IMG/VR virus record: IMGVR_UViG_3300045988_007060
Span: 1-43,620 of that record
Length of the DNA stretch: 43,620 bases
Reading direction: 5' to 3' (one strand)
Source: a virus
Taxonomy: Duplodnaviria; Heunggongvirae; Uroviricota; Caudoviricetes
In this document: one piece after another, positions 1 to 43,014 of the stretch
How positions within the stretch are numbered: position 1 is the first letter of the stretch
Layout of the letters: each line of letters begins with the position of its first letter
The notes under the pieces: generated by a model
Database searches by the model: none
What the model saw: the letters and a program-made list of their open reading frames with translations, nothing else
Told to the model about the DNA's origin: nothing
Translations under genes and position numbers: made by a program

Positions 1-89
1 GCTGACGCTGAATACGATGACCATTCTGTTGTCGATTGCGACCCGTATCTTATGAAGGATGCCAGAGACTTTTTCCAGTTCAGCGTTAT

Positions 90-383
90 TCATTTACGGC
101 AACCTCCCTCAGAGTCGTCGGCACGAGCATCATGGTTCGATGCCGTTCTCATAAACAATTTGCCCTTACGCTGTAGCAAGTCCATCGTTACCGCACCGGC
201 CCCTGACTTATTAGGGCGACGCAGTAGGCTAAAATTCCATGCCCGTGCCTTTGTTACGTCTCTGGCGTTACACACCCACAAAGCGCCATTTTCTCTTAGT
301 TCCAGCAATTCAGAAATGTTGAAATTATTTACGGGAATAAACCCGCTAATGAACTGGCGTTCGCATTGAGGTAATTCTTCCAT
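90..383 (-). CDS. hypothetical protein
   Basis: ORF in - frame; ATG at 383 overlaps stop of upstream gene (TGATG); AAAAGGGG upstream. Competing + ORF 52-369 looks like off-frame translation. Confidence 0.4.
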   Translation of the reverse strand: MEELPQCERQFISGFIPVNNFNISELLELRENGALWVCNARDVTKARAWNFSLLRRPNKSGAGAVTMDLLQRKGKLFMRTASNHDARADDSEGGCRK

Positions 384-574
384 CACTTCGCCCCTTTTAA
401 TTTAAAATTGTTGCCTATTAGTGTTAAATTATCCCGGTAGGCGAACCCGTGTTTCTTTCTTACCAGGCCCCATACGTCAACCAGATTATCCTCGTCATAC
501 TCGTTCTCGTCCTGCAACACTAATACATATTGTCCGCCGCGTTTCGTTTTAACCAACTGACCCTTCTTAAACAT
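383..574 (-). CDS. hypothetical small protein (63 aa)
   Basis: ATG at 574 preceded by GAGGAG at 8-nt spacing; downstream of - strand promoter at 609-637. Confidence 0.55.
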   Translation of the reverse strand: MFKKGQLVKTKRGGQYVLVLQDENEYDEDNLVDVWGLVRKKHGFAYRDNLTLIGNNFKLKGAK

Positions 575-597
575 AACCCTCACTCCTCTGTCTCGTG

Positions 598-637
598 TCG
601 ATAAGTGAATAGTATCCTATTATGTTGGGGTGTGCAA
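598..637. promoter_or_regulatory. overlapping divergent sigma70-like promoters with shared dyad operator
   Basis: - strand: TTGCAC(637-632)-N17-TACTAT(614-609). + strand: TCGATA(598-603)-N17-TATGTT(621-626). Shared site GTGAATAGTATCCTATTAT. Confidence 0.55.
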
Positions 638-802
638 GAGAATAGTTACATTGCCGTTGTGATTCTTTCGTTTCTTAAAAGAGTACGCAACGCAGTGGGT
701 GGGCGTTAGCCCACCCCAGCGGAGTGAAGTACTCTCTACCTTGCTCACGGCAACTATAGAAACTTTTAATTATCAGTGACTTGGGTATTTAGGCGGGATT
801 AA

Positions 803-946
803 CAATAGACTTTGGCCCTTCCGAAAGCGCCAGCGGAACTACACTCAAGTGCCTAATGGCACGCGTTGCGTTCCCTGCCGCTCCGCGGTCGCTTGCGATA
901 TCTCACAAGCTCAGTGAAGCTTAGCATATTTTTAAGTAAAAGTCAA
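803..946 (+). repeat. structured noncoding element, copy A (second copy at 33390-33532)
   Basis: Same-orientation similarity to 33390-33532 (shared blocks GGCCCTTCCGAA, AACTACACTCA, CGCGGTCGCTTG, CACAAGCTCAG, GAGCTTAGCA, AAAAGTCAA); hairpins GTGCC-TAAT-GGCAC (849-862) and AAGCT-CAGTG-AGCTT (907-922). Confidence 0.6.
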
Positions 947-1053
947 TACAAGTAGCATCTTTTGTATCTTAGTAACTTTGTGTGGTGTTTTGGTTGCTTT
1001 TACATTCCCGCTATCCTATACTCAGCTTCACCAAACAAACAGGAGATATAAAA

Positions 1054-1236
1054 ATGCAACATTACATGACCCAGAATGAAGTAGCTGAGCGTATTGGGGT
1101 GACACGCCAGACAATTAATAACTGGTTGCGCAGTGGTAAATTCCCGGATTGTTGTATTAAGGTTATGGGTCGCCGTTTACCAGGAACATTTGACCGTAAT
1201 AAAGTTGAAGCGTGGATTAAGGAGAACGTGAAATGA
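1054..1236 (+). CDS. HTH DNA-binding protein (AlpA/excisionase-like)
   Basis: MQHYMTQNEVAERIGVTRQTINNWLRSGKFP is a typical phage AlpA-type HTH; AGGAG RBS before ATG 1054. Confidence 0.7.
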   Translation: MQHYMTQNEVAERIGVTRQTINNWLRSGKFPDCCIKVMGRRLPGTFDRNKVEAWIKENVK

Positions 1237-1523
1237 AAGGTGTAATTTTCCACGATAAAGAGAACGACAATGCTTATATGGTTTATTTAGTGCAAGGCGA
1301 GTACGCGTTGTGCTTTAACGTTTCTTGTAAGCTGGACTCTTATTCACCGTTTTGCGTTACAGAAGAATTGCAGTTGATTAGCCTCCGAAGACTCAGCACA
1401 ATGTCGGCCTCCATCGATGTCTCGGACCACTTAGCGTACGTTTGTCAGTATTTCGGTTATGAGATAGTCGTAGATTATTATCGTAAGTACGCGCATTTGA
1501 TGGAATGTCTGGCTAAAAGATAA
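1233..1523 (+). CDS. hypothetical protein
   Basis: ATGA start/stop overlap with upstream gene; AAGGAG RBS. Confidence 0.55.
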   Translation: MKGVIFHDKENDNAYMVYLVQGEYALCFNVSCKLDSYSPFCVTEELQLISLRRLSTMSASIDVSDHLAYVCQYFGYEIVVDYYRKYAHLMECLAKR

Positions 1524-1582
1524 AAGAAAGCCCCGACGCGGTGAACGCTGAGGCCAAATTACTTGCTGAAGGAATATACAAC

Positions 1583-3844
1583 ATGTCCGATGTAATTTTA
1601 TCCTACTCGTGGTCTCGTCGCAACGCGCGGGCGGAGAAAAAGGATATAAACGTCAGAACCACACACACGGCAACACTGGACGACCTGAAAGAGTTAATCC
1701 AGCCGCTTGATGCCGTTCGCGATGGGATTAACCCGAAGACCGCGCCCGGTTATATTACCGCCGCTTGTGACTCAACGCACAGCACCGTAAAAGACCCGGA
1801 AACCGGTGACTTTAAGCAAGCGCGTAAAGGCTTCTTCTATCGCTGTGACGCGTCTGTAAGAAAATCGTCACTGGCGTATCTGGACTTCGACAGCGCAACG
1901 CCGGAAGAGTATCGGGAAGCGGTGCGTCTGGTTAAGCGCAGCCGACAGGTGATGTGCCTCTATACCACGGCATCCCATACCGACGAGTCACCGCGCTTTC
2001 GCGTCGTCATGCCGCTGGCCCGCCCGGTTGAAGGGGGTGACATCATCCGTGTTCGCCACGGATTGCTGGAGCACTTCTTCAAAGGCATGGGTGCCGACCG
2101 CAGCGGGTTTACGCTGTCTCAGCCGATGTACCTGCCACCGGTTGGCTCTACCGTTATCTGGTCTCGTCGCAACGACCTGATTGACCCGGACGAGTTGCTG
2201 GAAGGTATCCCCGCCGTTGACGTTAGCAGCGCATCTGACTACCAGATACCGGAAGAACTGCGCACCGCGTTTACCGATGCGTTTGAAGCACTGGCTTTTG
2301 AATACGGCGGCATCATGACGCCGCGCGGTCTGAAAATGCCAGCTACGCCGGAACACGCAGAAAACTACAGCGACCCGACGCCACGCCCGGACGACTTCCT
2401 GTTGTGCTTCCCGCGTGAAGGGTATGAGGCGCCTAACGTAACCATGATTCACGACACTGACATCACGGCAACAGAAGGCATGTCGCCGAAAGATGTGTGG
2501 AAGTACGCGTGCGATGCGACCGGGCTGCCGTTCAGTGAAGTGGCTGAGGCCATCGGCTGGGGTGCGCGTGAATCTGTTTCATGCAGCCTGGACGACCTGG
2601 AAGACGAGGACTCAGAGGACGAGTTACCGGAACCGGTAAAGGCTGATTTCGTCGTTGAGGGGTACATGCCGTCGGATTGTATCTGGGATATTGTCGGGGA
2701 ATCCGGCACGTACAAATCATTCTATACGCTCGGGATGATGTGCATTAGTGCCGCCGGATACCGGTTTGCCGGGGCAGATACCCAGCGTTGCCACCATTTC
2801 TATATCGACGGTGAAGGTGGCGCCGCTACGCGCACACGTATTGACGCACTCGCGGCTAAATATGGCGAGGAAGGTAAAGATTATGTACATGTTATCGACA
2901 TGGGTGAAGTCGGCAAACTGAAAAACCTGATTAAGTTGATGCGTGAAACCGCTGGCGACGAGCCAATTGGGATGGTCGCGTTCGACACCCTTAACCAGAC
3001 CCTGGCTCTGACGATTGATAAGTTCGATGAGAACAGTTCATCAACGGCAATCGGCATGGGTAAAGTTATTGCCATCCTGAAAGAAGTACGTGATGCGACT
3101 AAAGCCGCGGTAGGCGTCGTCCACCATACGCCGAAAGGTGGAAAGAAGGCCCGTGGCAGCGGGGCGCTGTATGCAGGTGTAGACGTAGAACTGACAATTG
3201 AGCGTGCAACAGACCGCCAGATAAACGTATACCACTCTAAATTCAAACACGGACCGCAACAGAAGACGGTTGGTATGGTGCTGGAGTCTGTACAGTTCCG
3301 TGAAGCGCCGCCGCCGAAAGAGTACCGCGCGGTTGAGTTCCCTGGCGGCACCGAGGAATACGGCACAATCGTAAACCTCGACCTGCCGGAGCCACACAAG
3401 GCGCTTGTGCTGATGCCGTGGGGCTTCGAGCCGTTCAAGACCGACGAGGAGAAAGAGCGGGAAGAAGGGCTGACAAAGGAAGGTAAAGAAAACGTACGCA
3501 AAACTGTAGAGAACGCTGTCAACAGTTCAGAGGCTACGATACTCGCAGCGTTTGAACTGGCGGAAGGAACTTACAAAGGCAACGAAGGTATCACGGTAGC
3601 CGCAGCGAATAAGCTAGCACAGTCTGACCCTAACGCAAAGGCGTTCAACTCCAAAGAAGCCATAGAACGCGGGAAGATTAAGAAAATGGTTGAGGCCGGG
3701 TATCTCGTACCCGGGACTGACGAAAACAATCAGATAATCCCGGGTCGTTACCGGCTGAACACCCGGATAACGGATAACAAGATTCCGAAGACAATATACG
3801 AACCGAATGAAATGTTAACAGTGACAGAGGAGGATTTGGAATGA
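1583..3844 (+). CDS. bifunctional primase-polymerase (AEP) / RecA-like replicative helicase
   Basis: N-terminus has AEP primase motifs (LAYLDFDS DxD; YTTASHTDE SxH); C-terminus has Walker A GESGTYKS, Walker B-like MVAFDTL and HHTPKGG. Start may be GTG 1541 or ATG 1583 (GAAGGA RBS). Confidence 0.8.
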   Translation: MSDVILSYSWSRRNARAEKKDINVRTTHTATLDDLKELIQPLDAVRDGINPKTAPGYITAACDSTHSTVKDPETGDFKQARKGFFYRCDASVRKSSLAYLDFDSATPEEYREAVRLVKRSRQVMCLYTTASHTDESPRFRVVMPLARPVEGGDIIRVRHGLLEHFFKGMGADRSGFTLSQPMYLPPVGSTVIWSRRNDLIDPDELLEGIPAVDVSSASDYQIPEELRTAFTDAFEALAFEYGGIMTPRGLKMPATPEHAENYSDPTPRPDDFLLCFPREGYEAPNVTMIHDTDITATEGMSPKDVWKYACDATGLPFSEVAEAIGWGARESVSCSLDDLEDEDSEDELPEPVKADFVVEGYMPSDCIWDIVGESGTYKSFYTLGMMCISAAGYRFAGADTQRCHHFYIDGEGGAATRTRIDALAAKYGEEGKDYVHVIDMGEVGKLKNLIKLMRETAGDEPIGMVAFDTLNQTLALTIDKFDENSSSTAIGMGKVIAILKEVRDATKAAVGVVHHTPKGGKKARGSGALYAGVDVELTIERATDRQINVYHSKFKHGPQQKTVGMVLESVQFREAPPPKEYRAVEFPGGTEEYGTIVNLDLPEPHKALVLMPWGFEPFKTDEEKEREEGLTKEGKENVRKTVENAVNSSEATILAAFELAEGTYKGNEGITVAAANKLAQSDPNAKAFNSKEAIERGKIKKMVEAGYLVPGTDENNQIIPGRYRLNTRITDNKIPKTIYEPNEMLTVTEEDLE

Positions 3845-4155
3845 ATATCTACGATTTTATAGATAACCCATTTAAAGCAGTGAAGGCAGGATACCGCCCG
3901 TCATACCTGACATGTGTTTCCGCGGTAAGCGGCCACTGGTGGACTTTTTGTGTTTACACGGCGGGGATTTTTGCGGAGTTTAAAGACATTTTAGATATGA
4001 CGCTGGCGGAGATTATAAAGTGCCTTTTCAAGTTGATTATCGCGATAACTATTGTAATAAGTTTTCCTGTAAGTGTGTGGTTTCTGGCCTGGATTCAGTA
4101 CCTGAACGTGCAACACACGGTTAAGAATTTGGAAGAACTCGATAAGTTGCAATAA
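3841..4155 (+). CDS. small membrane protein
   Basis: GAGGAGG RBS, ATGA overlap with primase stop; hydrophobic segment LFKLIIAITIVISFPVSVWFLAWI. Confidence 0.5.
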   Translation: MNIYDFIDNPFKAVKAGYRPSYLTCVSAVSGHWWTFCVYTAGIFAEFKDILDMTLAEIIKCLFKLIIAITIVISFPVSVWFLAWIQYLNVQHTVKNLEELDKLQ

Positions 4156-4168
4156 AAAGAAAGGGGCG

Positions 4169-4384
4169 TTAAACCCCTTCACCGAACGCCAGCCACTTGG
4201 CGTCTACTTGCAGCACTTCTGCCAGTTTAAACAGCGTCGCCGGGCGTACGTCCTGAGTTACCCCAAGCGCAAGCTGGTTAATTGCGCCCTGGGAAACGCC
4301 AGCCATGACAGCCAGACGGCGCTGGGAGATGCCAAGTTCTTTACGGCGTTGTTCTACACGGATGCCTAGTTCAGATGGTTGCAT
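4169..4384 (-). CDS. XRE-family HTH transcriptional regulator (Cro/CI-type, 71 aa)
   Basis: RRKELGISQRRLAVMAGVSQGAINQLALG is a canonical XRE HTH; AAGGAG RBS; divergent from early promoter 4449-4477; hairpin with T-run on - strand at 4162-4178. Confidence 0.8.
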   Translation of the reverse strand: MQPSELGIRVEQRRKELGISQRRLAVMAGVSQGAINQLALGVTQDVRPATLFKLAEVLQVDAKWLAFGEGV

Positions 4385-4404
4385 GTCAATTACTCCTTAG
4401 TTAG

Positions 4405-4433
4405 TTGATATGTGAATAGTACCATATTAATTA
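4405..4433. promoter_or_regulatory. operator copy in repressor-proximal intergenic region
   Basis: TGTGAATAGTACCATATTAA matches the operator motif; sits between the repressor start and the rightward promoter. Confidence 0.4.
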
Positions 4434-4448
4434 TTTTAGAAAAGCCCG

Positions 4449-4477
4449 TTGACACGTGAATAGTTCGCTATTATAGT
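4449..4477 (+). promoter_or_regulatory. sigma70-like early promoter with embedded operator
   Basis: TTGACA(4449-4454)-N17-TATAGT(4472-4477); spacer carries GTGAATAGTTCGCTATTAT dyad. Confidence 0.65.
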
Positions 4478-4508
4478 TAGCACATACCAAACGAGAGGAG
4501 AGAAACAA

Positions 4509-5000
4509 ATGTTAGAGAAATTCTTAGTATTACTGGAACGTTTCGTGGTTGCACATGAACTGATTGCTGCGAATAGTGCGAAACAGTTCGCGCCAACTAC
4601 TGCCAAAGAGGCTGCCGCAGTAGCCGCACATAAAATTGAGCAGTTCTCTGAAAGTATTAAAGAAGAAACAAAAGAAATCCCGGTGGAAGGCGAAGACATC
4701 GTTGACACTAAACCAGCAGAAGAAGAGAAGCCAAAACGCAAGCCGCGTAAAGCTAAAGCAGAGGAGCCGACGCCAGAGCCGGAAGAAGAAGTCGATTACC
4801 AGTCTCTGCGCGACCAGATTCAGGCTATCGATGATGCGATTAACGAAGGCCCTAGCGACGCCGCGTGCGATGACTCTGATGAACTGCTGGAAGAGTTCAC
4901 CGGTAAGAAGATGAAGATTGCCGCGATTAAAGACGAAGACCTTGCCGAGTACCTGGAACGTCTGACGGCAATCAAGAACAAGTATTTCGAAGAAGAATAA
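4509..5000 (+). CDS. acidic early protein, unknown function
   Basis: GAGAGGAGAG RBS; E/D-rich sequence with a central K/R-rich patch; first gene after the early promoter. Confidence 0.6.
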   Translation: MLEKFLVLLERFVVAHELIAANSAKQFAPTTAKEAAAVAAHKIEQFSESIKEETKEIPVEGEDIVDTKPAEEEKPKRKPRKAKAEEPTPEPEEEVDYQSLRDQIQAIDDAINEGPSDAACDDSDELLEEFTGKKMKIAAIKDEDLAEYLERLTAIKNKYFEEE

Positions 5001-5007
5001 CTATCTC

Positions 5008-5026
5008 GCGGCCTTCGGGCCGCTTT
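5008..5026 (+). terminator. hairpin, possible terminator/attenuator
   Basis: GCGGCC-TTCG-GGCCGC followed by TTT. Confidence 0.4.
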
Positions 5027-5043
5027 AACTGAGGGTCGGAAAT

Positions 5044-5316
5044 ATGATTTACCAACTCTACCGCGCCGTAGACAGGCGGGATACCACAGAGGCGCTATGG
5101 CTGTTACGTGCGCCGTCCGGTGCTCACCAGATGGAAGAGATGGCGTACTTAGGCAAAGTACCATGGCCTAAAGATATAGGCCGTCACGTGTCTCAGATTA
5201 AGCGCACGACGTTCGTCAAGCCTGACTTTTATGTCTTCGAGTCGATGTATAGCTGGGCTATGCACTGCGAACATAAGACACGACATTTAATTGACCAGTG
5301 GGAGAGCAGGGTATGA
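5044..5316 (+). CDS. hypothetical protein
   Basis: ATG at 5044 after GAGGGTCGG; stop overlaps next start (ATGA). Confidence 0.5.
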   Translation: MIYQLYRAVDRRDTTEALWLLRAPSGAHQMEEMAYLGKVPWPKDIGRHVSQIKRTTFVKPDFYVFESMYSWAMHCEHKTRHLIDQWESRV

Positions 5317-5810
5317 ACTGGCATGAAGTTTTTGACTACGACCCTGATACCGGTAAATTATTTTGGAAAATAAGTCCGTCAAAATCTGTAAAAATAGGGC
5401 AAGAAGCTGGCAGTACGAGGGAGGACAACGACGGGAGTGAATTTAAAATACTACGTTTTAACGGGACTACTAAACTTATCCACCACGTAGTTTGGGAGAT
5501 GTTTAACGGGGTGATAGCGCCCGGGGAAGTAATTCGTCATAAAAATAAAGATAGAACTGATAACAGAATAGAAAATCTTATAAAAATGCGTCGGGGAAGT
5601 ATCGCACACGGCACAAACATACGGACCGACAATACTTCAGGGGTTAAAGGTGTTGGGTTTCATAAACGCTACGGTAAGTGGGTCGCTAGAATTTATGTAG
5701 ACGGCAGGCCGATTTATTTAGGGGCTTACGATAAGTTAGAGAACGCGGCTAAGGCTCGTAGGCAAGCCGAGATTAAATATGGGTTTACAGTTAACGGAGC
5801 TGAGAAATGA
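5313..5810 (+). CDS. HNH homing endonuclease with AP2-like DNA-binding domain
   Basis: HHVVWEMFNG...HKNKDRTDNRIENL (HNH) and SGVKGVGFHKRYGKWVARIYVDGRPIYLG (AP2-like); GGAG RBS; paralog of 25860-26333. Confidence 0.8.
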   Translation: MNWHEVFDYDPDTGKLFWKISPSKSVKIGQEAGSTREDNDGSEFKILRFNGTTKLIHHVVWEMFNGVIAPGEVIRHKNKDRTDNRIENLIKMRRGSIAHGTNIRTDNTSGVKGVGFHKRYGKWVARIYVDGRPIYLGAYDKLENAAKARRQAEIKYGFTVNGAEK

Positions 5811-7108
5811 TTCTTAAAGAACGTGGCGGCAATAACGATGTGCACGCCTTACTGTCACCGTCAGGCGCTAAAAAGTGGCTAAGCTGTGCTGCATCACTGG
5901 CCTGTGAGAAAGATATTCCTAACACGTCCGGTAAAGCTGCGGTATTAGGCACAGCCATGCACACCATAGCGGAGGTCCATCTAAACGCCTATATCCGTGG
6001 CACTGCATTGCCGTTAGGGCGTGAAGTTGGCGCTTACGTGCTGGATGAAGGCAAAGGCCAGATTAAGGCGCTAATCAGCCCGATGAAAGGCGCGGTACTG
6101 ATTACGGCTGACATGATTGAGCAGGTGCGTAAGTACACCGATTACTGCAAAGCTATTATCGACGTGGCTACTTACGCCAAGCTGGAAATGTGCGTCAATC
6201 TTACTGAGGTATTGCATCCTGGCTACATTCATAGCCCTAACGGACGGCAAGAAGAACTACAGACATTCGGAACTTCTGACCTTGTTGCCGTACAGGAGAT
6301 GGCAAACACCGACGAGCACATGCTCATTATTGGCGACCTGAAAACAGGACGACATCGTGTCGAAGCGAAAGAAAACAAACAGCTTATGCTTTACGCTCTC
6401 GGTGTTTATCGCCGTCTCAAGAGACGTTATAACATAACAACTGTTCGTCTGGTAATCTTCCAACCGTACGCTGGTGGGGCGTCGGAGTGGGACATCTCGG
6501 TTGAAGGTCTGGAACTGTTCGCTAAGTTCGCACGGAAACGTGCACTGTTGGCGCTTGATGCATATTTCCGCGGCAAGAAGAACCTGAAAGCGTCGGACTT
6601 CAGGCCGTCGGTCGATGGCTGCCAGTGGTGTCGGTTCTCTGAACAATGCGCCGTGCGTACAAAGACGGTTAACGCAGTACTGGCAGAAGAACTGGAGGAC
6701 GACTTTGCACTGGAACTGACACCAGAGCAACTCGTAGCTGAGTACGAGAAGTTGCCGTTGTTGCGCCAGCACATCGACAAGGTTGAGAAAGCTATGGCCG
6801 CCGCTTTGCATTCCGGTAAGAAAGTGCCGGGGTATAAGCTGGTTGAAGGTCGTCCGGGTAATCGTAGCTGGAGTGATGAAAAATGGGTCGAAGAACTAGC
6901 AGCGCGCCATAACGTAGACATGGATTTGCTAACAAAGAAATCTGTTATGTCACCAACGGAAGCGGAAAAAGTGTTAAAAGGCGCGTATGCCAGGATGTGG
7001 GCCGAACTGGAAACGAAAGTTACTCGTAAGCCAGGCGCGCCATGCGTCGCAACGGCAGACGACAAACGGCCTGAGTGGAATCAGGTTAGTGAAGAAGATT
7101 TAGAATAA
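5807..7108 (+). CDS. PD-(D/E)XK Cas4/RecB-like exonuclease (DUF2800-type)
   Basis: IGDLKTGRHRV..QLMLYALGV nuclease core plus C-terminal Cys cluster DGCQWCRFSEQC; position upstream of DUF2815 and PolA. Confidence 0.75.
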   Translation: MILKERGGNNDVHALLSPSGAKKWLSCAASLACEKDIPNTSGKAAVLGTAMHTIAEVHLNAYIRGTALPLGREVGAYVLDEGKGQIKALISPMKGAVLITADMIEQVRKYTDYCKAIIDVATYAKLEMCVNLTEVLHPGYIHSPNGRQEELQTFGTSDLVAVQEMANTDEHMLIIGDLKTGRHRVEAKENKQLMLYALGVYRRLKRRYNITTVRLVIFQPYAGGASEWDISVEGLELFAKFARKRALLALDAYFRGKKNLKASDFRPSVDGCQWCRFSEQCAVRTKTVNAVLAEELEDDFALELTPEQLVAEYEKLPLLRQHIDKVEKAMAAALHSGKKVPGYKLVEGRPGNRSWSDEKWVEELAARHNVDMDLLTKKSVMSPTEAEKVLKGAYARMWAELETKVTRKPGAPCVATADDKRPEWNQVSEEDLE

Positions 7109-7112
7109 AGTG

Positions 7113-7141
7113 TTGACACCTGAATAGTTAGCTATTATAGT
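7113..7141 (+). promoter_or_regulatory. sigma70-like promoter with embedded operator
   Basis: TTGACA(7113-7118)-N17-TATAGT(7136-7141); spacer CCTGAATAGTTAGCTAT. Confidence 0.65.
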
Positions 7142-7195
7142 TCTAATCACTGGCCGGGCAGTTTCCCGGAGTAAACTTAAAAGCGAGAAATCAAG

Positions 7196-7822
7196 ATGGG
7201 ACTGAAATTAAATCTACGTAAAGTAAACACTGCATGGGTTAACGTATTCGAACGCGAAAAAGACCGTGAAAACGATGATGGCTCAATCACTAAAGGCCAG
7301 TACAGCGCGACTATTATCCTGCCATCTGACCATGCTCAAATCGATGCGCTCTACGACACTGTTTACGCTGTAGTTGAAGAAGCGTTAGGTGCAGCCGCCG
7401 CCGAGAAATGGATGAAGTCGAACTACGGCGAAGGCAAGCACATGGATAAATGCGCGATTAAAGACATTGCCGAGCGCGACAATCCGTTTGAAGACTTCCC
7501 GGAAGGATTCTACTTCAAAGCGAAGGCACAGAAACAGCCGCTGATTGTAACCTCTAAAAAAGGTGAGACTCAGGTAGAGCAGGACTTCAATGTAGACGGC
7601 GAACAGATTGAAGGTGAACAGGTTTACAGCGGCTGTGTCGCCAACGTAAGCGTTGAAATCTGGTTTAGCCAGAAATATAAAGTCCTCGGCGTTAACCTGC
7701 TGGCAATTAAATACGTCGGCGAAGGTAAAGCGTTCGGCGGTTCTAAAGTTGCTGCAAGCGTTAATGACCTGGAAGACGACGAAGAAGATGGAGCACCGCG
7801 CCGTGAACGTCGTCGCCGTTAA
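7196..7822 (+). CDS. DUF2815-type ssDNA-binding protein
   Basis: Acidic C-terminal tail (DLEDDEEDG) then RRERRRR; conserved position between DUF2800 and PolA. Confidence 0.65.
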   Translation: MGLKLNLRKVNTAWVNVFEREKDRENDDGSITKGQYSATIILPSDHAQIDALYDTVYAVVEEALGAAAAEKWMKSNYGEGKHMDKCAIKDIAERDNPFEDFPEGFYFKAKAQKQPLIVTSKKGETQVEQDFNVDGEQIEGEQVYSGCVANVSVEIWFSQKYKVLGVNLLAIKYVGEGKAFGGSKVAASVNDLEDDEEDGAPRRERRRR

Positions 7823-7842
7823 TATCTGAATCAATTTAACTA

Positions 7843-7864
7843 AGGCCCTTCATTGGGCCTTTTT
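7843..7864 (+). terminator. rho-independent terminator
   Basis: AGGCCC-TTCATT-GGGCCT followed by TTTT. Confidence 0.6.
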
Positions 7865-7883
7865 ACTAAGGGTCGAAAATAAT

Positions 7884-10800
7884 ATGGCTAATTTATTGTA
7901 TCTTGATACCGAAACATTCTCTGAAGCTGACCTAAAGAAAGTAGGGTCATACGCATACGCGGAACACGCAACAACTGAGATTATAATATGTACATACGCC
8001 GTTGATGATGGGCCTGTAGAAGTATGGGATTGCACTTCCGAACCAGTAATGCCAATAAGCCTACGCGTTGCGCTACGTAATGTTATGCGCGGGCGTATGA
8101 GAATTGTAGGCCATAACTTTTTAATGTTCGACAGGCTAGTTATGAAGCACTGCTGGGGTGTGGATATCAAACCGAGAAATACCATCGACACTATGATTCG
8201 AGCGTTTCGTCACGCGCTGCCTGGGTCACTTGATGCGCTGTGCGAAGTGCTGGGCGTATCGGCGGACAATGCAAAAGACAAACGCGGCAAGGCGCTGATT
8301 CAGCGTTTCTCTAAACCGACGCCGAAGAACTACAAAATCCGTCGATACACCGCAGAAACACACCCTGACGAGTGGGCGCTGTTCATCAAGTACGCCGTGA
8401 GCGACATCACCGCGATGCGTGAAGTCTTCCATAAACTGCCGCGTTGGGGTAACTCCGAGTTCGAGGACCGTGTACTGGAGCTGGACCAGTTAATCAATGA
8501 CCGCGGGTTTAAGGTTGACGTCGCACTGGCGGAAGCCGCGATTGAAGCCGTGGAGAAGCACAAGGCACAGTTACAGGAAGAAGCCCAACGAAAATACGGC
8601 GGCTCGCTTACTGGTAAAGACTTCCTTCCGATTCTGCGTGAACTCGCACCCGCGCACCGCATCCATAACGCACAGAAGTCGACACTGAATGACCTGCTGG
8701 CAGACGATGATTTACCCGACGATGCTCGCATGATTATAGAAATGCGCCTCGGGGCCGCGTCCACCGCATCAACGAAATATAACCCACTGCTGTTGGGCCG
8801 CTCTTCTGACGACCGACGCCGCGGTTGCTTGCAGTACGGCGGGGCAAAACGCACTCTGCGATGGGCGGGTAAAGGCTTCCAACCGCAGAACCTCGCGCGC
8901 GGGTACTATCACGATGATGAACTGGATAAAGGCATTTCAGCGTTACTTAAGGGCCGCGCGCACCGCCGTTTTGATGTCGCTAAATTAACGGCATCGACGG
9001 TGCGTAGCTGCATCATACCGGAAGCAGGACATAAGTTTGTTGTTGCCGATTATTCTAACGTTGAGGGCCGAGGGCTTGCGTGGCTTGCAGGCGAAGAAAC
9101 CGCGCTAGATACGTTCCGCGCCGGGCTGGATATTTATTGCGTAACCGCAGGTAAGATGTTTGGCATGGACCCAGACGACATTAAGAAAGAACGTAAAGAC
9201 TTGCGCCAGATTGGTAAAGCGTGCCTTCACCGTCATACCCAAGTTTTGACCGATGGCGGATTTAAGGATATTATGGCGGTTACATCAACAGATAAAGTAT
9301 GGAGCGGTGAAAAATGGGTGAATACAAAAGGCGCGCACCTTATGGGGTGGAAACCGGTAATAAATGTGGACGGGGTGCTAATGACCGAAGACCACAAAAT
9401 CTTGGCGCATTCCTGGAAGCAGGCAAAGCAACTCGCTTCAAACAGATATATGATGGGCCTCGCCCTGGAGAGAGGTATGGACGCTTGGTTATCCTGCGCG
9501 AGTTACCAAAACGACAAGGCCAAAGACAACTACTCGTCCAATGTGATTGCGGGGGGATGCCGGGGCGGGTCTATTATGACAACGTCAGAGCGGGTAAAAC
9601 CACTCAATGCAACCGCTGCGCCCTTGAAGCAACAAAAAAATATCGTAAACAGTATTTCTGCTACGAAGACGCAATGCCGGATGATGCGCACAGAACGCGA
9701 TTACTCAACCGGCTGTCCGCGGCTATCACGCGAACAACAAGCCCCAGGGATAAGGGTTATAAAAACTATGGGGCAAGAGGCATCACGGTATTCGACCAGT
9801 GGAGGACTGATAAAAGGTCTTTTCTTAGATATGTTCAAACTCTGGAAAGCTGGGATGACCCGAACCTCGAAATGGATAGAATCGACACAGACGGTAACTA
9901 CGAACCTGGAAACATTCGGTTTGTCAGCCGTTCTGAAAACTGCCGAAACAGACGGCAAATACCCGAGCTTCAACGAAAGTATGATGCAGCCGTTGCCCGC
10001 ATTGCTGAACTTGAGCGGGAAATTAACCTACTGCGAGCCGGTGTACGACCTGATTGATGTGGAAGACGGCAACCGTTTTCTTATAGCCTCAGACTCTGGC
10101 TTTCTTGTGGCGCATAACTGCGAGCTTGGCCTCGGCTACGAGGGAGGCGTCGGAGCGTTCGTTACGTTCGCTAAAAACTTAGGTCTTGACCTTATTGAGA
10201 TGGCAAAAACAATGGACGGTACATTCCCGGGCCACATATGGGCCGCTACCGCACGCGGGTACGAGTGGGCACGCATCCAGGAAGCAAAGCGGCCACCGCA
10301 TCCAGGTGAAAAGGACGACAGACCATCGTATATTCTGGACAAGAAAGTGTGGCGCACATGTGACGCGATCAAGCGTATGTGGCGCGAGTCACACCCGGAA
10401 ACAGTAGCGTTCTGGCGGGACCTTAAAGACGGAATTTTAGCCGCTGTGCGCAATCCTGGTCGTGAATTTTGGGCGGGAGCACACTTGCGCAAGAATGGCG
10501 AGCGCGCTATCCGAATCTGGAGAACAGTAGAAACCGATTCATCAGGTAGGAAGGTTCCCGGTTGGTGGTTGTGTATGGAGTTGCCGTCAGGCCGTATCCT
10601 CTCGTATCCGGGGATCGGCGTTAGCGTGACAAAAGAAACAGACGAAGACGGACGGGTAAACACGAATGTGCGAATCAAGTACCAAGGTGAAAACCAGTTA
10701 ACCCGCCAATGGACTACCCTGTACACCCACGGCGGCAAAGCCTGTGAAAACATTGTTCAGGCGTTGTGCCGTGATTTACTAGCATATGCGATGATTAATG

Positions 10801-10979
10801 TTGAGGGTGGCGGGTATCCCATCGTGCTTTCGGTACACGATGAACTGGTGTGTGAAACTCCAGATACGCCTGATTACACGGTGGCTGAACTGGAAAAATT
10901 AATGTGTTCGCTGCCTGAGTGGGCTGAGGGGTTCCCGCTTGTAGCGGAAGGTGCGGAGATGAAACGTTATGCTAAGTAA
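7884..10979 (+). CDS. family-A DNA polymerase with 3'-5' exonuclease domain, interrupted by an intein
   Basis: Exo motif LYLDTETFS; motif A VVADYSNVEGRGLAWL; motif B split as RQIGKA / intein / CELGLGYEGG; motif C LSVHDELVCE. Confidence 0.9.
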   Translation: MANLLYLDTETFSEADLKKVGSYAYAEHATTEIIICTYAVDDGPVEVWDCTSEPVMPISLRVALRNVMRGRMRIVGHNFLMFDRLVMKHCWGVDIKPRNTIDTMIRAFRHALPGSLDALCEVLGVSADNAKDKRGKALIQRFSKPTPKNYKIRRYTAETHPDEWALFIKYAVSDITAMREVFHKLPRWGNSEFEDRVLELDQLINDRGFKVDVALAEAAIEAVEKHKAQLQEEAQRKYGGSLTGKDFLPILRELAPAHRIHNAQKSTLNDLLADDDLPDDARMIIEMRLGAASTASTKYNPLLLGRSSDDRRRGCLQYGGAKRTLRWAGKGFQPQNLARGYYHDDELDKGISALLKGRAHRRFDVAKLTASTVRSCIIPEAGHKFVVADYSNVEGRGLAWLAGEETALDTFRAGLDIYCVTAGKMFGMDPDDIKKERKDLRQIGKACLHRHTQVLTDGGFKDIMAVTSTDKVWSGEKWVNTKGAHLMGWKPVINVDGVLMTEDHKILAHSWKQAKQLASNRYMMGLALERGMDAWLSCASYQNDKAKDNYSSNVIAGGCRGGSIMTTSERVKPLNATAAPLKQQKNIVNSISATKTQCRMMRTERDYSTGCPRLSREQQAPGIRVIKTMGQEASRYSTSGGLIKGLFLDMFKLWKAGMTRTSKWIESTQTVTTNLETFGLSAVLKTAETDGKYPSFNESMMQPLPALLNLSGKLTYCEPVYDLIDVEDGNRFLIASDSGFLVAHNCELGLGYEGGVGAFVTFAKNLGLDLIEMAKTMDGTFPGHIWAATARGYEWARIQEAKRPPHPGEKDDRPSYILDKKVWRTCDAIKRMWRESHPETVAFWRDLKDGILAAVRNPGREFWAGAHLRKNGERAIRIWRTVETDSSGRKVPGWWLCMELPSGRILSYPGIGVSVTKETDEDGRVNTNVRIKYQGENQLTRQWTTLYTHGGKACENIVQALCRDLLAYAMINVEGGGYPIVLSVHDELVCETPDTPDYTVAELEKLMCSLPEWAEGFPLVAEGAEMKRYAK
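9222..10118 (+). mobile_element. intein in PolA motif B (299 codons in polymerase frame)
   Basis: Begins CLHRHTQVLTDGG, TxxH block GVLMTEDHKIL, ends VYDLIDVEDGNRFLIASDSGFLVAHN then Cys+1; central part in this frame looks like off-frame sequence. Confidence 0.8.
9314..10057 (+). CDS. HNH homing endonuclease encoded in the -1 frame inside the intein
   Basis: GERYGRLVIL, CDCG..CNRC, DRIDTDGNYEPGNIRFVSRSENCRN; GGAG 9 nt before ATG 9314; true start could be further downstream. Confidence 0.7.
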   Translation: MGEYKRRAPYGVETGNKCGRGANDRRPQNLGAFLEAGKATRFKQIYDGPRPGERYGRLVILRELPKRQGQRQLLVQCDCGGMPGRVYYDNVRAGKTTQCNRCALEATKKYRKQYFCYEDAMPDDAHRTRLLNRLSAAITRTTSPRDKGYKNYGARGITVFDQWRTDKRSFLRYVQTLESWDDPNLEMDRIDTDGNYEPGNIRFVSRSENCRNRRQIPELQRKYDAAVARIAELEREINLLRAGVRPD

Positions 10980-11100
10980 ACTGATTATCGTATTACTGGC
11001 GGGATTCGCCGCCGGTGTCTACTGTCACGAGGGTCAATACGGCATGATTGTCACCGTATTGGGTATGTTCATCGCAATTTATCTGTGGGTGCTGGAATGA
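10969..11100 (+). CDS. small membrane protein (43 aa)
   Basis: GGAG RBS; hydrophobic; first of three translationally coupled mini-ORFs. Confidence 0.35.
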   Translation: MLSKLIIVLLAGFAAGVYCHEGQYGMIVTVLGMFIAIYLWVLE

Positions 11101-11186
11101 AAATTTACGGGTTATACGAAGAAGACTGTCGAATCTGCCCGCGCTGCGGGATTGAGCATACAAAACGAGAGGGGTGCGTATTATGA
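11097..11186 (+). CDS. small Cys-rich protein (29 aa, zinc-ribbon-like)
   Basis: ATGA overlaps on both sides; DCRICPRCG...EGC. Confidence 0.3.
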   Translation: MKIYGLYEEDCRICPRCGIEHTKREGCVL

Positions 11187-11335: not shown

Positions 11336-11616
11336 CCCCGGAGGGCAAGATTCAGAAATACGCAAAAGAACGATTCGAGGCCCTCGGTGGCCTCGTTCGT
11401 AAACTTTCCTACGAGGGGCGCTCCGGCGCTCCCGACCTGCTGGTAATTCTCCCCGGCGGCATCATCTGGTTCGTCGAGGTTAAGAAAGACGAAAACACGA
11501 AGCCAGACCCACACCAGTTACGCGAGCATGCGCGGATGTGTAAACGTGGTGCAAATGTTTTTGTCGTTGGCTCGTTCAAACAGGTTGACGACCTAATAGC
11601 GAACTATTATAGTTAA
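11332..11616 (+). CDS. VRR-NUC domain nuclease
   Basis: SGAPDLLVILPGGIIWFVEVKKD...GANVFVV resembles the VRR-NUC core. Confidence 0.7.
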   Translation: MTPEGKIQKYAKERFEALGGLVRKLSYEGRSGAPDLLVILPGGIIWFVEVKKDENTKPDPHQLREHARMCKRGANVFVVGSFKQVDDLIANYYS

Positions 11617-11646
11617 TCACACACCAACAATATAAGGAATTGAGAA

Positions 11647-33389: not shown

Positions 33390-33532
33390 CAATAGAGTAT
33401 GGCCCTTCCGAACGCGTCAGCGTAACTACACTCAGGACTTACGTCCCGCTCCGTTACCTGCCCGCGCCGCGGTCGCTTGTTCATACTTCACAAGCTCAGG
33501 TGGAGCTTAGCACATTTTTAGTGAAAAGTCAA
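33390..33532 (+). repeat. structured noncoding element, copy B
   Basis: Homologous to 803-946; hairpins GGAC-TTAC-GTCC (33435-33446) and AAGCTC-AGGTG-GAGCTT (33492-33508); followed by palindrome AACTATTCGAATAGTT (33531-33546). Confidence 0.6.
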
Positions 33533-34083: not shown

Positions 34084-35159
34084 TAATCCCCTTTCAGATA
34101 ATCAGCAACACGTTTATCGAGTTCCGCCATCTGCTTAAGTGTCAGCGGATTCCCGAAACCATCTACAGATATTACGCGAAACTCTTCCGGCGATATACCG
34201 CTGTTGCGGAAAATCTTACCGCGAACCGGGCCGAGAGCTTCATCAATAAACCATGCCGGTTGTTGTTTCAGGAACTCGTAGTAAGTGGTGTCCGCGCTTA
34301 CCTGAGTACCGCCGTCCGCACCCTTAGCCGCACGTTTTGCGCCTTTATCGAGGAAGTCGAACTCTGAACTGATTACCGGGGCCGTGCACGACCGACAATT
34401 CGGATGGGCTGGAGGCATCGGCCCTTTACCAATTTCCCATGTCATTCCGTCTCTGGCTCTGCAAATCGTACTGGTACGGCTGTCCAGCGTTGACACCCAC
34501 TCGTACTTCTCGATGATGTCGTCGTTCTGGCGGTACGTCTCGTTACGGGCTTCGTTGGACACGTGAGACAGCGCAGTACGTATTACCGTAGCTGCGTTGC
34601 GCTCAGAGATGTCGGCCAGTCCGCCCGCGCCGACTACGCTTTTAACAATCTGCCGTGTGGTTTGACCTTGTACGAAACCCATCTTAACGCCGGTTACAAG
34701 GCGCGCGACTTCTGTTTCACCCCAGCCGTCCATCAGCTTAGTGAAGTCAACAGGCTTGTCGTTCAACGCCAGAGGTTGAAACTCGGCGGCGGCCCACACT
34801 TGCTCGGCAGTAGGCGTAACAAATTCCCCATTTACGTTAGTGGTCAGAGTCTTTACGTTCCACTCAGCCTCGTACGCTGCCAGTTCTTTGAGGTCTTCTA
34901 TCAGCTTTGTCCGCCAGTCACCAGTAAGTCCTGTTAATGCTTCTTCAAGGTCGCGTAACAGTTTATTTAGTCGCGCGGTGCTTCGCCCGTCGTCACCGAA
35001 TAACAGCACCTGCCGTTTGATTTCGTCCCGCATTTCCTGAAGAAACGGCGCAAGGTCTTTCACTTCACCGGATGCGGTGCGTTGCAGCCATATCTGGTGG
35101 CTGATTAGGGATGTAAGTAAGCTCATAGATAAACCCTGTGGCGCTAAAGTTAATAGCAT
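34083..35159 (-). CDS. head morphogenesis protein (Mu F / SPP1 gp7-like)
   Basis: Position directly after portal; ~360 aa, typical size and order. Confidence 0.65.
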   Translation of the reverse strand: MLLTLAPQGLSMSLLTSLISHQIWLQRTASGEVKDLAPFLQEMRDEIKRQVLLFGDDGRSTARLNKLLRDLEEALTGLTGDWRTKLIEDLKELAAYEAEWNVKTLTTNVNGEFVTPTAEQVWAAAEFQPLALNDKPVDFTKLMDGWGETEVARLVTGVKMGFVQGQTTRQIVKSVVGAGGLADISERNAATVIRTALSHVSNEARNETYRQNDDIIEKYEWVSTLDSRTSTICRARDGMTWEIGKGPMPPAHPNCRSCTAPVISSEFDFLDKGAKRAAKGADGGTQVSADTTYYEFLKQQPAWFIDEALGPVRGKIFRNSGISPEEFRVISVDGFGNPLTLKQMAELDKRVADYLKGD

Positions 35160-35195
35160 ACTATAAGAAAGCCCCTTTCGGAGCTATAAGCATAC

Positions 35196-40394: not shown

Positions 40395-40423
40395 CGATGA
40401 AGTAAATATAATTGGTGTAAGAG
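40395..40423 (-). promoter_or_regulatory. sigma70-like promoter
   Basis: TTGACT(40423-40418)-N17-TATATT(40400-40395) on - strand. Confidence 0.55.
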
Positions 40424-40454
40424 TAATAGTCAACTAGTCATTACAGAAAATAGA

Positions 40455-42837: not shown

Positions 42838-42866
42838 ATAGTAGCCTATTCTATCTTAGTGTGCAA
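42838..42866 (-). promoter_or_regulatory. sigma70-like promoter with operator
   Basis: TTGCAC(42866-42861)-N17-TACTAT(42843-42838); operator TGAATAGTAGCCTATTCT. Confidence 0.6.
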
Positions 42867-42980: not shown

Positions 42981-43014
42981 AAGTCACAAAGCCAAATAGT
43001 AAACTATTGACCTG

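Follow-up and report, generated by a model that had tools for sequence, protein, structure and literature searches.

Which protein, if any, reads the short inverted repeat that recurs at promoters throughout the genome of an E. coli-infecting phage is the question raised by the stretch of viral DNA analysed here (the window; 43,620 nt, IMG/VR record IMGVR_UViG_3300045988_007060), which is a complete Kagunavirus (Guernseyvirinae) genome. A first-pass annotation, made from the sequence alone, had described a family of sigma70-like promoters with an embedded dyad operator, duplicated as a cassette, and had put forward a 71-aa XRE protein as the binder; its sequences and coordinates were all reproduced. 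The motif itself has appeared before, as PHIRE-derived 'phage promoters', in the genome papers of two Kagunaviruses. An Rfam scan of the window gave no matches.

With up to three mismatches allowed, the motif TGAATAGT-N3-CTATTAT is matched 11 times in the window compared to 0.92 expected matches, a count reached by 0 of 100 shuffles. The core, a 14-bp dyad AATAG-N4-CTATT, is found 13 times with at most one mismatch (about 1.0 expected; at most 5 in 200 shuffles) and ranks first among all 5+5 palindromes in an unbiased listing of the window, with seven perfect copies against 0.04 expected. Matches deep within genes, at 406 and 18060, correspond to the chance level of about one, while about 11 copies are located at gene junctions or in non-coding DNA and nearly all overlap predicted sigma70-like promoters. 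The imperfect dyads 33524-33537, 35152-35165 and 40425-40438 were added and are kept in relatives. Six of the seven perfect dyads lie outside the greedy ORF map, that is in 7.7% of the genome, the seventh reaching into a gene only at its last codons (P about 1e-6 for placement outside ORFs by our own binomial arithmetic). The motif carries about 21 bits of information; to specify 11 sites takes 12 bits within the phage and 18.7 bits when the host is counted in. Its information profile falls to near 0 bits at the centre, and the dyad thus has the form of those operators of about 14-18 bp in which the outer half-sites are conserved and the centre is free to vary.

The promoters associated with these dyads, predicted from consensus only, possess sigma70 hexamers at a spacing of 17 +/- 1 bp, all upstream of ORFs on the matching strand. 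In positions 1-15000 the sigma70 consensus is best matched by the TTGACA-N17-TATAGT promoters at 4449 and 7113, scoring 11/12, and a further near-consensus promoter with a dyad at 11585 (TTGACG-N17-TATAGT), absent from that annotation, completes the three best matches of this region, all of which hold the dyad. The promoters at 11585 and 40433 score 10/12. The TTGCAC-N17-TACTAT units at 637(-), 24275(+) and 42866(-) are equally present, with a weaker match of 7-8/12, and alternative -10 hexamers can be drawn for them. The probable promoter of the HTH_17/helicase operon (around 994) is without a full dyad. All dyad copies but one overlap the -35, the spacer or the -10 of a predicted promoter, the dyad centre falling at -18.5, -12.5 or -33.5 relative to the hexamers and at about +4.5 at the candidate promoter of the XRE gene. 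Occurrence at three registers and at about +4.5 of the XRE promoter is a pattern that fits an operator and not a promoter element. In many copies the -10 shares bases with the right half-site, which must therefore be conserved in part for the sake of RNA polymerase. Transcription start sites are predicted, to within 2 nt, at 4484, 7148, 11620 and 24310 (+) and at 602, 4426 (or about 4412), 24279, 33497, 40398 and 42831 (-). The coordinates of promoters and dyads are compiled in the table.

Table. Predicted promoters, dyads and the gene of the candidate repressor in the window.
Feature	Position	Strand	Context
Cassette copy 1, TTGCAC-N17-TACTAT, dyad 608-621 over -10	609..637	-	predicted to drive leftward small-gene operon (583 down)
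Weak hexamers TCGATA-N17-TATGTT round dyad 608-621	598..626	+	8/12; centre -18.5; function uncertain
XRE/HTH_3 protein gene, 71 aa (Pfam HTH_3)	4169..4384	-	434-Cro-like candidate repressor
O2, imperfect dyad AATAGTACCATATT	4415..4428		between XRE start codon and O1
Candidate promoter of XRE gene, TTCACG-N16-TAAAAT	4433..4460	-	9/12; back-to-back with P4449, overlapping
P4449, TTGACA-N17-TATAGT	4449..4477	+	11/12 sigma70; predicted to drive 4509-7108
O1, perfect dyad AATAGTTCGCTATT	4459..4472		in P4449 spacer (centre -18.5); overlaps -35 of leftward XRE candidate promoter (centre -39.5)
P7113, TTGACA-N17-TATAGT, dyad 7123-7136	7113..7141	+	predicted to drive Enc34-type ssDNA-binding protein and DNA polymerase genes
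P11585, TTGACG-N17-TATAGT, dyad 11595-11608	11585..11613	+	predicted to drive 11647-13935 including SNF2 helicase
Cassette copy 2, TTGCAC-N17-TACTAT, dyad 24291-24304	24275..24303	+	predicted to drive 24332-26560
Divergent GTTACA-N17-TATATT, common dyad 24291-24304 (centre -18.5)	24286..24314	-	faces tail operon (24167 to 14278)
TTGACT-N17-TAAGCT, imperfect dyad 33524-33537 over -35 (centre -33.5)	33504..33532	-	
Imperfect dyad AATAGCATACTATA	35152..35165		between terminator of portal gene and head-morphogenesis gene
TTGACT-N17-TATATT, imperfect dyad 40425-40438 over -35 (centre -33.5)	40405..40433	-	10/12
Cassette copy 3, TTGCAC-N17-TACTAT, dyad 42837-42850	42838..42866	-	predicted to drive 42764 down (small genes, holins, endolysin)
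Perfect 6-2-6 palindrome AATAGTAAACTATT	42995..43008		without promoter; between stop codon of DUF551 gene and terminator

Downstream of P4449, a 163-aa protein, an HNH-AP2 protein and a DUF2800 nuclease are encoded, and the operon behind the second cassette copy comprises a superinfection-immunity homolog and a phosphoesterase, identities taken from relatives. Upstream of the XRE gene, the O2 centre lies at about +4.5 if TTCACG-N16-TAAAAT is taken as the promoter and at -12.5 if a weak TACTAT-type promoter is taken instead, with TTGCGT-N17-TACTAT as the Jerseyvirus counterpart when the sequences are read by eye. At the site orthologous to the divergent promoter at 24286..24314, phage PVP-SE2 has an annotated leftward promoter, where TTGACG-N17-TATTAA can be read. 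The two further copies that the first-pass annotation had listed at 4411-4430 and 42995-43009 correspond to O2 and to the promoterless palindrome, of which the latter recurs in the divergent Kagunavirus-like locus L058. That annotation had also described an 'inverted version' at 33531-33546. The palindrome AACTATTCGAATAGTT is present there, but was rejected as an alternative binding mode, its half-sites being arranged tail-to-tail with 7-bp spacing unlike at other sites; it is better read as the imperfect dyad 33524-33537, in standard orientation over a leftward -35, plus an orphan half-site. The corresponding promoter is 'HP1' of phage fBC-Eco01, and the dyad with its mismatch is kept in K1G, fFiEco03 and LSPA1. 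The promoter at 40405..40433, which is found downstream of the endolysin terminator, is conserved in Kagunavirus and Jerseyvirus, P11585 in K1G, fFiEco03 and the Jerseyviruses, and the dyad at 35152..35165, listed among the PHIRE sites of phage Golestan (PMC7203180), in fFiEco03 and LSPA1.

The TTGCAC-type promoters form a truly repeated unit of about 35 nt, with 605-638 and 24274-24307 as 34-nt inverted copies that are 94% identical and a third copy at 42835-42869 with 83% identity. A recent duplication within this genome, however, was rejected as all three copies are already present in K1G and fFiEco03. Furthermore, accessory genes inserted in relatives bring their own copy, for example in fFiEco03 at 4896. 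The unit can be regarded as a compact and portable promoter-operator-RBS cassette, reused for accessory genes, which could help to engineer these phages.

Conservation in relatives delineates the dyad further. When O1 was compared among 30 distinct Kagunavirus sequences, its half-sites were invariant while the central bases and 2 nt beside the -35 vary, a footprint of limited resolving power given the close relationship of Kagunavirus genomes. The dyad is kept at orthologous promoters in Jerseyvirus, with another centre and other flanks, and in both genera the half-sites are fixed while the central 4 bp drift. Together with the variable register over the core promoter, this bears out the operator-like nature of the embedded dyad. 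Imperfect sites retain their own mismatch across relatives, that of O2 in all Kagunavirus loci. Among all palindromes, AATAG-N4-CTATT comes out on top in four of five Kagunavirus and Jerseyvirus relatives and is tied for the top in the fifth, PVP-SE2. The SP-031-like outlier St162, with a 39%-identical XRE protein and no detectable HTH_17 protein, has no AATAG-N4-CTATT; a weak candidate for a replacement operator, TATTA-N6-TAATA, is found there on TTGACA/TTGCAA-N17-TAATAT promoters, at three sites, which are too few for a firm argument for a switch in specificity.

A good candidate to bind the dyad is the XRE protein, as the first-pass annotation had proposed. It is a small HTH_3 (lambda-repressor-like) domain protein (Pfam HTH_3, E 5.7e-13, 49.1 bits with a cut-off of 23), which finds its best PDB sequence match over its full length in 434 Cro, equally of 71 aa (E 3.6e-7, 38-41% identity). 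The AF2 model has five helices and is matched by Foldseek to 434 Cro/cI, P22 c2, SinR and C.AhdI, and these matches, the C-proteins included, all bind dyads as dimers. Operators of phage 434 are likewise dyads of 14 bp, in which the outer bases are conserved and the centre is without protein contact. Two dyads, O1 and O2, are located in the upstream region that separates the XRE gene from the divergent P4449, where they flank the candidate XRE promoter. Homologs of the XRE protein were retrieved from 490 phage records, almost all of them Guernseyvirinae, and none in unrelated contexts, all close homologs residing within the same phage group. In an RNA-seq analysis of Kagunavirus K1B4, an HTH-domain gene (_008) is among just four early genes (PMC12645636). 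From gene order we infer that this gene is the XRE ortholog, the supplements giving no unambiguous mapping; the transcriptome, the only one found for the genus, reports timing at the level of genes and not of 5' ends (PMC12645636).

The XRE protein is not, as had been claimed, the only classical regulator in the window, in which an HTH_17/excisionase-like protein (1054-1236), a NinH-family protein (39111-39347) and an HNH-AP2 protein (5298-5810) are also encoded. That the dyad is a genuine operator of another protein, such as the HTH_17 or NinH-family protein or a host transcription factor, is an unlikely alternative which has nevertheless several observations in its favour: HTH_17 and NinH are both encoded in the window, HTH_17 heads the rightward helicase operon, St162 without HTH_17 is also without the dyad, and Kagunavirus and Jerseyvirus have one and the same AATAG/CTATT core, with HTH_17 up to 84% identical between the two genera but XRE only about 51%. 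The base just outside AATAG, however, which is G in 15 of 36 Kagunavirus compared to 1 of 22 Jerseyvirus half-sites, tracks the XRE recognition helix (SQGAINQ versus SQSLITH), a co-variation of one operator position in two lineages. No such correspondence is seen with the helix type of HTH_17, and here two cases are informative: locus L056 has flanks of Kaguna type together with a Jersey-type HTH_17, and in K1G the dyads are unchanged although the HTH_17 helix is of a third type. HTH_17 is thus the less likely binder, as its recognition helix comes in three types with the dyad unchanged and the type shared by L056 and Jerseyvirus occurs with two flank states; moreover, the usual mode of HTH_17/Xis-like proteins is to recognize direct repeats or to bend DNA, and not to bind 14-bp dyads. 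There is equally no evidence for the site of a host factor: the Jerseyvirus buks, on E. coli, has Jersey-type flanks, so that the flank tracks phage lineage and not host, and an AATAG-N4-CTATT consensus is not known for any factor of E. coli or Salmonella. The position of two dyads directly in the control region of the XRE gene itself also argues against another binder.

It might also be considered that there is no separate operator at all and that the dyad is the shared core of a family of host sigma70 promoters, whose members have been kept alike by shared ancestry, duplication of the cassette and selection for promoter strength. Such a scenario can draw on the -10-like hexamers that CTATTAT, TATAGT and TACTAT supply in every class, on the 83-94% identity of the three TTGCAC units over about 35 nt and on the copies carried by inserted accessory genes in relatives, but it appears improbable since the same dyad takes three registers relative to the hexamers and is once found downstream of a predicted start site, and since the copy at 42995 is without any promoter. 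Equally, conservation is symmetric around a variable centre, and the upstream half-site AATAG, which falls in the spacer, never changes although the spacer bases beside it do; base-specific contacts with sigma70 are not made in the spacer. The published label, which assigns the motif to an RNA polymerase encoded by the phage, derives from the recovery of the motif by PHIRE, with the consensus tgAATAGTa-ccTATTat-T at seven sites listed as 'Phage RNAP promoter' in fBC-Eco01 (PMC9825357) and the same core at seven sites in VB_EcoS-Golestan (PMC7203180). This is highly implausible. No RNA polymerase domain was detected in any large ORF and none is annotated in six relatives; the ORFs of at least 750 aa encode the helicase-primase, DNA polymerase A and three proteins without Pfam match, which sit where relatives annotate tailspike, tail protein and tape measure. 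With no RNA polymerase gene, the label is not tenable. Furthermore, the motif is palindromic, occurs in both orientations relative to downstream genes, the flanked motif facing away from the gene at 637(-), 24275(+) and 42866(-), and is embedded in near-consensus sigma70 promoters.

We consider it probable, on the basis of sequence comparison, that the dyad (G/T)AATAG-N4-CTATT(A) on nearly all predicted sigma70 promoters is an operator bound by a dimer of the 434-Cro-like XRE protein of the phage. Because the copies overlap a core promoter element, be it spacer, -10 or -35, the bound dimer would block RNA polymerase. At infection, no XRE protein would be present and all promoters would fire, most strongly the near-consensus TTGACA-N17-TATAGT promoters of the replication genes. 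The XRE protein would be produced from the promoter that overlaps P4449 back-to-back and, on accumulation, would fill the perfect dyads first, namely those of O1/P4449, P7113, P11585 and the three TTGCAC-type cassettes, with the divergent pair at 24291 among them. The conserved imperfect dyads, O2 over the XRE promoter/leader and the -35 sites of the leftward promoters at 33532 and 40433, would be filled later. Early and middle transcription would thereby be turned down with graded timing and XRE production would be self-limited, as with Cro late in lambdoid lytic growth. Should the same repressor also act on tail and lysis/head promoters, a simple early shut-off model would be incomplete.

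More speculative, and as a whole rather doubtful, is an extended reading in which this single Cro-like protein serves as a genome-wide timer in a phage group without lysogeny genes; neither integrase nor cI is annotated in the six relatives examined. About 11 operators of graded quality in three registers might order the turn-down of replication, accessory, lysis/head and tail promoters. O1 at -39.5 might repress P4449 and meanwhile favour or directly activate the XRE promoter, one common dyad might co-ordinate the divergent tail and superinfection-immunity promoters, and the XRE protein might also gate the promoter of a conserved structured leader RNA ahead of the lysis and head genes.

Guernseyvirinae, with Kagunavirus and Jerseyvirus, belong to the most frequently isolated phages for therapy and biocontrol directed against E. 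coli and Salmonella. For these phages a published mislabel can be replaced by a testable model, in which host sigma70 promoters are gated by a phage Cro-like repressor and exact coordinates are available for operators, promoters and predicted start sites. The PHIRE 'promoters' of fBC-Eco01 and Golestan present the same motif at the same orthologous positions, with no mention of dyad symmetry, overlap with sigma70 hexamers or a link to the XRE gene in either paper (PMC9825357, PMC7203180).

Among known systems, the closest resemblance is to phage 434, with respect to the XRE protein, which shares the length, single HTH_3 domain and five-helix fold of 434 Cro, and to OR/OL, where, as with 434 cI and P22 c2/Cro, the dyads are equally 14 bp long, with outer bases conserved and the central 4 bp variable, and overlap promoters, which in the window are predicted ones. 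As in 434, the XRE gene adjoins a pair of divergent promoters, here predicted, at which two or more operators of unequal quality are found, an arrangement that implies autoregulation. Unlike in 434, a cI partner, an integrase and a tripartite OR/OL are absent, the half-site is AATAG instead of ACAA, and about 11 operators extend over all transcription units instead of being gathered in two clusters. A lambdoid immunity region with a cI-Cro switch is equally not recovered, as only two dyads are found next to the XRE gene instead of three adjacent operators and the divergent gene encodes the 163-aa protein of PHROG 3127. Small XRE folds were also found with Foldseek in C.AhdI and C.BclI, C-proteins that bind as dimers to dyad 'C-boxes' over their own promoter, where strong and weak sites give a concentration-dependent control comparable to the system proposed here; in contrast, the control by C-proteins is confined to one operon and begins with activation. 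Activation at the XRE promoter, with O1 centred near -39.5, would be possible. Repressors with scattered sites are known from temperate phages, with more than a dozen operators for P1 C1 and the 'stoperators' of gp71 of mycobacteriophage L5; these sites are asymmetric, bound without dyad symmetry and maintain lysogeny. The candidate system shares with these one phage-encoded repressor, many scattered sites and many operons, and the 42995 site is located within a transcription unit as a roadblock would be. The sites described here are, however, symmetric, about 10 of 11 on promoters with only 42995 inside a transcription unit, and no lysogeny module accompanies them. Conceptually, this is an ordinary repressor-operator system, of which the unusual aspect is the genome-wide spread in a phage without lysogeny module.

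Listing all 5+5 palindromes with gaps of 0-8, without prior assumptions, placed AATAG-N4-CTATT (the dyad, a putative 14-bp operator) on top in the window with seven perfect copies against 0.04 expected. Equally, it comes first in K1G (six copies), fFiEco03 (seven), LSPA1 (five) and buks (four) and tied first in PVP-SE2 (three); the remaining high-scoring palindromes are GC-rich terminator stems. In the window, the core dyad has 13 matches at up to one mismatch against 1.0 expected and the longer motif TGAATAGT-N3-CTATTAT 11 matches at up to three mismatches against 0.92. The motif copies and promoters reported in the first-pass annotation were all recovered, and the cassette duplication it had placed at 609-637 and 24275-24303 was returned by a repeat finder as 34-nt inverted copies (605-638 and 24274-24307, 94% identity) with a third copy at 42835-42869 (83% identity); absent from it were the near-consensus, rightward, dyad-bearing promoter P11585 (TTGACG-N17-TATAGT) and the imperfect dyads at 33524, 35152 and 40425, which are kept in relatives. 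A greedy ORF map leaves 7.7% of the genome uncovered; six of the perfect dyads fall there, while a seventh (11595) overlaps only the last codons of a gene; matches deep in genes at up to one mismatch (406, 18060) occur in the number expected by chance. The symmetrised motif holds about 21 bits, near zero at its centre, while specifying 11 sites takes 12 bits when only the phage is considered and 18.7 bits when a 4.6-Mb host is added, as expected for a phage regulator that has to ignore the host chromosome.

The window covers the entire genome of an E. coli siphophage of the Kagunavirus type (subfamily Guernseyvirinae), 87-92% identical to fFiEco03, Ivi, K1G and others across most of its length, recognisably similar to several hundred Salmonella Jerseyvirus records and with the gene order of the annotated relatives. 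Ahead of the HTH_17/helicase-primase operon, some 470 bp (584-1053) are non-coding, which is unusually long. The DNA polymerase A ORF (7884-10979, + strand) has 1031 aa, likewise in PVP-SE2, compared with about 733 aa in fFiEco03 and K1G, and its Pfam match is short (residues 370-446), which suggests an in-frame insertion, possibly an intein.

Features of the genome, and position of the dyad centre relative to predicted promoters
Feature	Position	Strand	Remark
Replication arm	about 1054-13935	+	one leftward gene within, XRE (4169-4384)
Tail operon	24167 down to 14278	-	
Small island, superinfection-immunity homolog and phosphoesterase	24332-26560	+	
Head, packaging, lysis and small-gene blocks	remainder of window	-	
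HTH_17/excisionase-like protein	1054-1236		
HNH-AP2 endonuclease-like protein	5298-5810		
NinH-family protein	39111-39347		
TTGACA/G-N17-TATAGT (P4449, P7113, P11585)	4449, 7113, 11585	+	dyad centre -18.5 (spacer)
GTTACA-N17-TATATT, facing tail operon	24314	-	dyad centre -18.5 (spacer)
TTGCAC-N17-TACTAT (cassette)	637, 24275, 42866	-, +, -	dyad centre -12.5 (over -10)
TTGACT-N17-TAAGCT	33532	-	dyad centre -33.5 (over -35)
TTGACT-N17-TATATT	40433	-	dyad centre -33.5 (over -35)
TTCACG-N16-TAAAAT, XRE candidate promoter	site 4415	-	dyad centre about +4.5
Dyad without promoter	42995		
TTGACT-N17-TAAGCT, promoters of RNA-like blocks	33504-33532, 922-950	-	each directly upstream of block

Whether the dyad is a promoter element or an operator was judged by aligning each copy with the best sigma70-like hexamers of either strand. 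The registers differ and both orientations occur, always over the core promoter, which resembles a repressor site, as a sequence read by a polymerase would hold one register. The promoter reading is the published one. The motif has been seen previously, without interpretation, as seven PHIRE sites of fBC-Eco01 with the consensus tgAATAGTa-ccTATTat-T, labelled "phage RNAP promoters" (PMC9825357, Suppl. Table S2), and as seven PHIRE-predicted promoter sites of Golestan with the same core (PMC7203180, Suppl. Table S4). The large ORFs of the window are all replication enzymes or virion proteins and none is an RNA polymerase gene, six relatives carry no RNA polymerase annotation and no Guernseyvirinae genome examined encodes one; with the gene absent from the window and the examined relatives, the label is untenable. 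The dyad at 24291 is common to two divergent overlapping predicted promoters; the orthologous PVP-SE2 site carries an annotated leftward promoter, and around this site TTGCAT-N17-TATTAT and TTGACG-N17-TATTAA are both readable.

The 'inverted version' of the motif reported at 33531-33546 (AACTATTCGAATAGTT) is present, not as a separate inverted site: its left portion supplies the right half of a standard imperfect dyad (33524-33537, AAAAG-TCAA-CTATT) lying over the -35 of TTGACT-N17-TAAGCT, a leftward promoter named 'HP1' in fBC-Eco01 (PMC9825357), and the AATAG that follows is an orphan half-site shared with a different conserved palindrome, GAATA-N3-TATTC. A second binding mode was rejected on this ground. 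Between the stop codon of a DUF551 gene and a terminator (42960-42981) lies a perfect 6-2-6 palindrome, AATAGTAAACTATT (42995-43008), about 145 bp from the 42837 operator and kept in a relative's locus (L058), which could act as a roadblock or looping partner. TTGCTT-N17-TATACT at 994-1022 (+), read by eye, is the probable promoter of the HTH_17/helicase-primase operon; it has the right half-site CTAT only, and since a full dyad is missing this operon may escape the proposed repressor.

The region between XRE and P4449 was compared in 30 distinct Kagunavirus versions, close relatives that give such a comparison limited power alone. Both half-sites of the perfect dyad O1 (4459-4472) are invariant and variation is concentrated in the dyad centre and the 2 nt separating the -35 from the dyad; P7113 follows the same pattern in 17 versions. 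A comparison over greater distance is more telling, as orthologous Jerseyvirus promoters retain AATAG and CTATT and differ in centres and flanks. Imperfect sites retain their own mismatch across relatives (CATATT at O2, the imperfect copy at 4415-4428; AAAAG at 33524; CTAG at 40425), suggesting that the weaker sites are under maintaining selection.

The XRE protein had been proposed as binder on the premise that it is the only regulator. This premise is false, as HTH_17, NinH-family and HNH-AP2 proteins are also encoded; the interpretation, with its putatively XRE-bound operators, is nevertheless largely right, and XRE is still the best candidate. It contains an HTH_3 domain, its nearest solved sequence relative is the Cro protein of phage 434, likewise 71 aa (E 3.6e-7, end-to-end alignment), followed by 434 repressor and P22 c2, and its AlphaFold model of five helices (pLDDT 78.9) matches 434 Cro/cI, P22 c2, SinR and R-M controller proteins. 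These proteins bind dyads as dimers, and in the operators of 434, which are dyads of 14 bp, the outer bases are conserved and the central segment is free of protein contact, the same geometry as in the window. The interval that separates the XRE gene from the divergent P4449 contains a perfect and an imperfect dyad, a classic layout for autoregulation. In the GenBank record of phage Shashou, the XRE ortholog is annotated "cro".

Co-variation points to the same protein. By recognition helix, XRE splits into three lineages: Kagunavirus with SQGAINQ, Jerseyvirus with SQSLITH and the SP-031-like St162 group with TQSAISH. Directly outside AATAG, 15 of 36 Kagunavirus half-sites have G; of 22 Jerseyvirus half-sites, only one has G and 21 have T. 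The flank state tracks XRE and not HTH_17, because in locus L056 a Kaguna-type XRE and Kaguna-type flanks go with TRRTLNNW, the HTH_17 helix of the Jersey type, and in K1G the dyads are unchanged with yet another HTH_17 helix, SPMTLNRW, the third type; it tracks phage lineage and not host, because buks, a Jerseyvirus growing on E. coli K-12, has Jersey-type flanks. Salmonella phage St162, whose XRE is 39% identical, has no detectable HTH_17, no AATAG-N4-CTATT and a weak alternative dyad, TATTA-N6-TAATA, at three sites in equivalent promoter position; operator specificity may have switched, a weak case with three sites only. In St162 (positions 13003, 13652, 26798-26825 and 33415), TATTA(S)-N4-(S)TAATA is seen in the spacer of TTGACA/TTGCAA-N17-TAATAT promoters, and the XRE gene heads the helicase operon, a position held by HTH_17 in Kagunavirus. 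All close XRE homologs found were within this phage group, none outside.

A Cro-like turn-down on a whole-genome scale can be envisaged. At the start of infection, XRE would be absent and host RNA polymerase would use all promoters, most strongly those of the replication arm (10-11 of 12 consensus positions). XRE would be transcribed leftward from a predicted promoter whose -35 abuts that of P4449, and with predicted starts about 58 bp apart the two would compete for polymerase. XRE dimers would fill the perfect dyads first and turn down P4449, P7113, P11585, the three cassette promoters and the divergent pair at 24291. Occupancy of O1 would also remove a strong competitor of the XRE promoter and, as O1 is centred near -39.5 of that promoter, direct activation is possible. 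At higher levels, XRE would reach the weaker dyads as well, namely O2 at the promoter or leader of its own gene, for self-limitation, and those that cover the -35 element of the leftward promoters at 33532 and 40433. In the one transcriptome for the genus, that of K1B4, the HTH-domain gene _008 is among four early genes (PMC12645636); by gene order, it is probably the XRE ortholog.

The TTGCAC unit of about 35 nt with leader and RBS appears to behave as a portable promoter-operator cassette. fFiEco03 carries an extra copy at an inserted accessory gene (4896), and relatives would express such genes from extra copies. A 42-nt inverted repeat of 71% identity (4388-4429 vs 24290-24331) shows that the dyad-leader-RBS region upstream of XRE resembles that of the superinfection-immunity homolog (sie), which suggests that the promoter-operator-RBS unit has been reused whole.

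Two paralogous conserved transcribed blocks (916 down to 800 and 33501 down to 33387, both -), each about 116 nt long, resemble structured RNA. They fold into two hairpins (94.8% of cells paired, double changes in 8 of 24 pairs). Covariation is strong, with a score of 0.326; shuffles score 0.143 and slid controls no higher than 0.087. In K1G, fFiEco03 and LSPA1, copy 2 is kept at 97-98% identity, and a covariance model finds an orthologous block in buks and PVP-SE2, both Jerseyviruses, directly after an annotated promoter and ahead of the spanin genes; an Rfam match was not found. A GC hairpin with a weak U-tract and then the next genes follow 3' of each block, which may be a leader, or a put-like or PR'-6S-like late (processive) antitermination RNA for lysis and head genes. 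Of the two block promoters, at 33532(-) and 945(-), only the former bears an XRE-type dyad. The palindrome GAATA-N3-TATTC lies at 32756-32768 and 33539-33551, preceded by ATGTTG and with GGAATA/TATTCC repeats nearby. It occurs twice per genome in Kagunavirus, Jerseyvirus and also St162, which is without the AATAG dyad, flanks the spanin genes beside promoter-like -35 elements and may be recognised by another regulator, one that acts late.

The published mislabel of these sites is hereby corrected. The dyad and XRE would form a repressor-operator system of the well-known Cro/434 type, of note chiefly because it extends over the whole genome of a phage without a lysogeny module.
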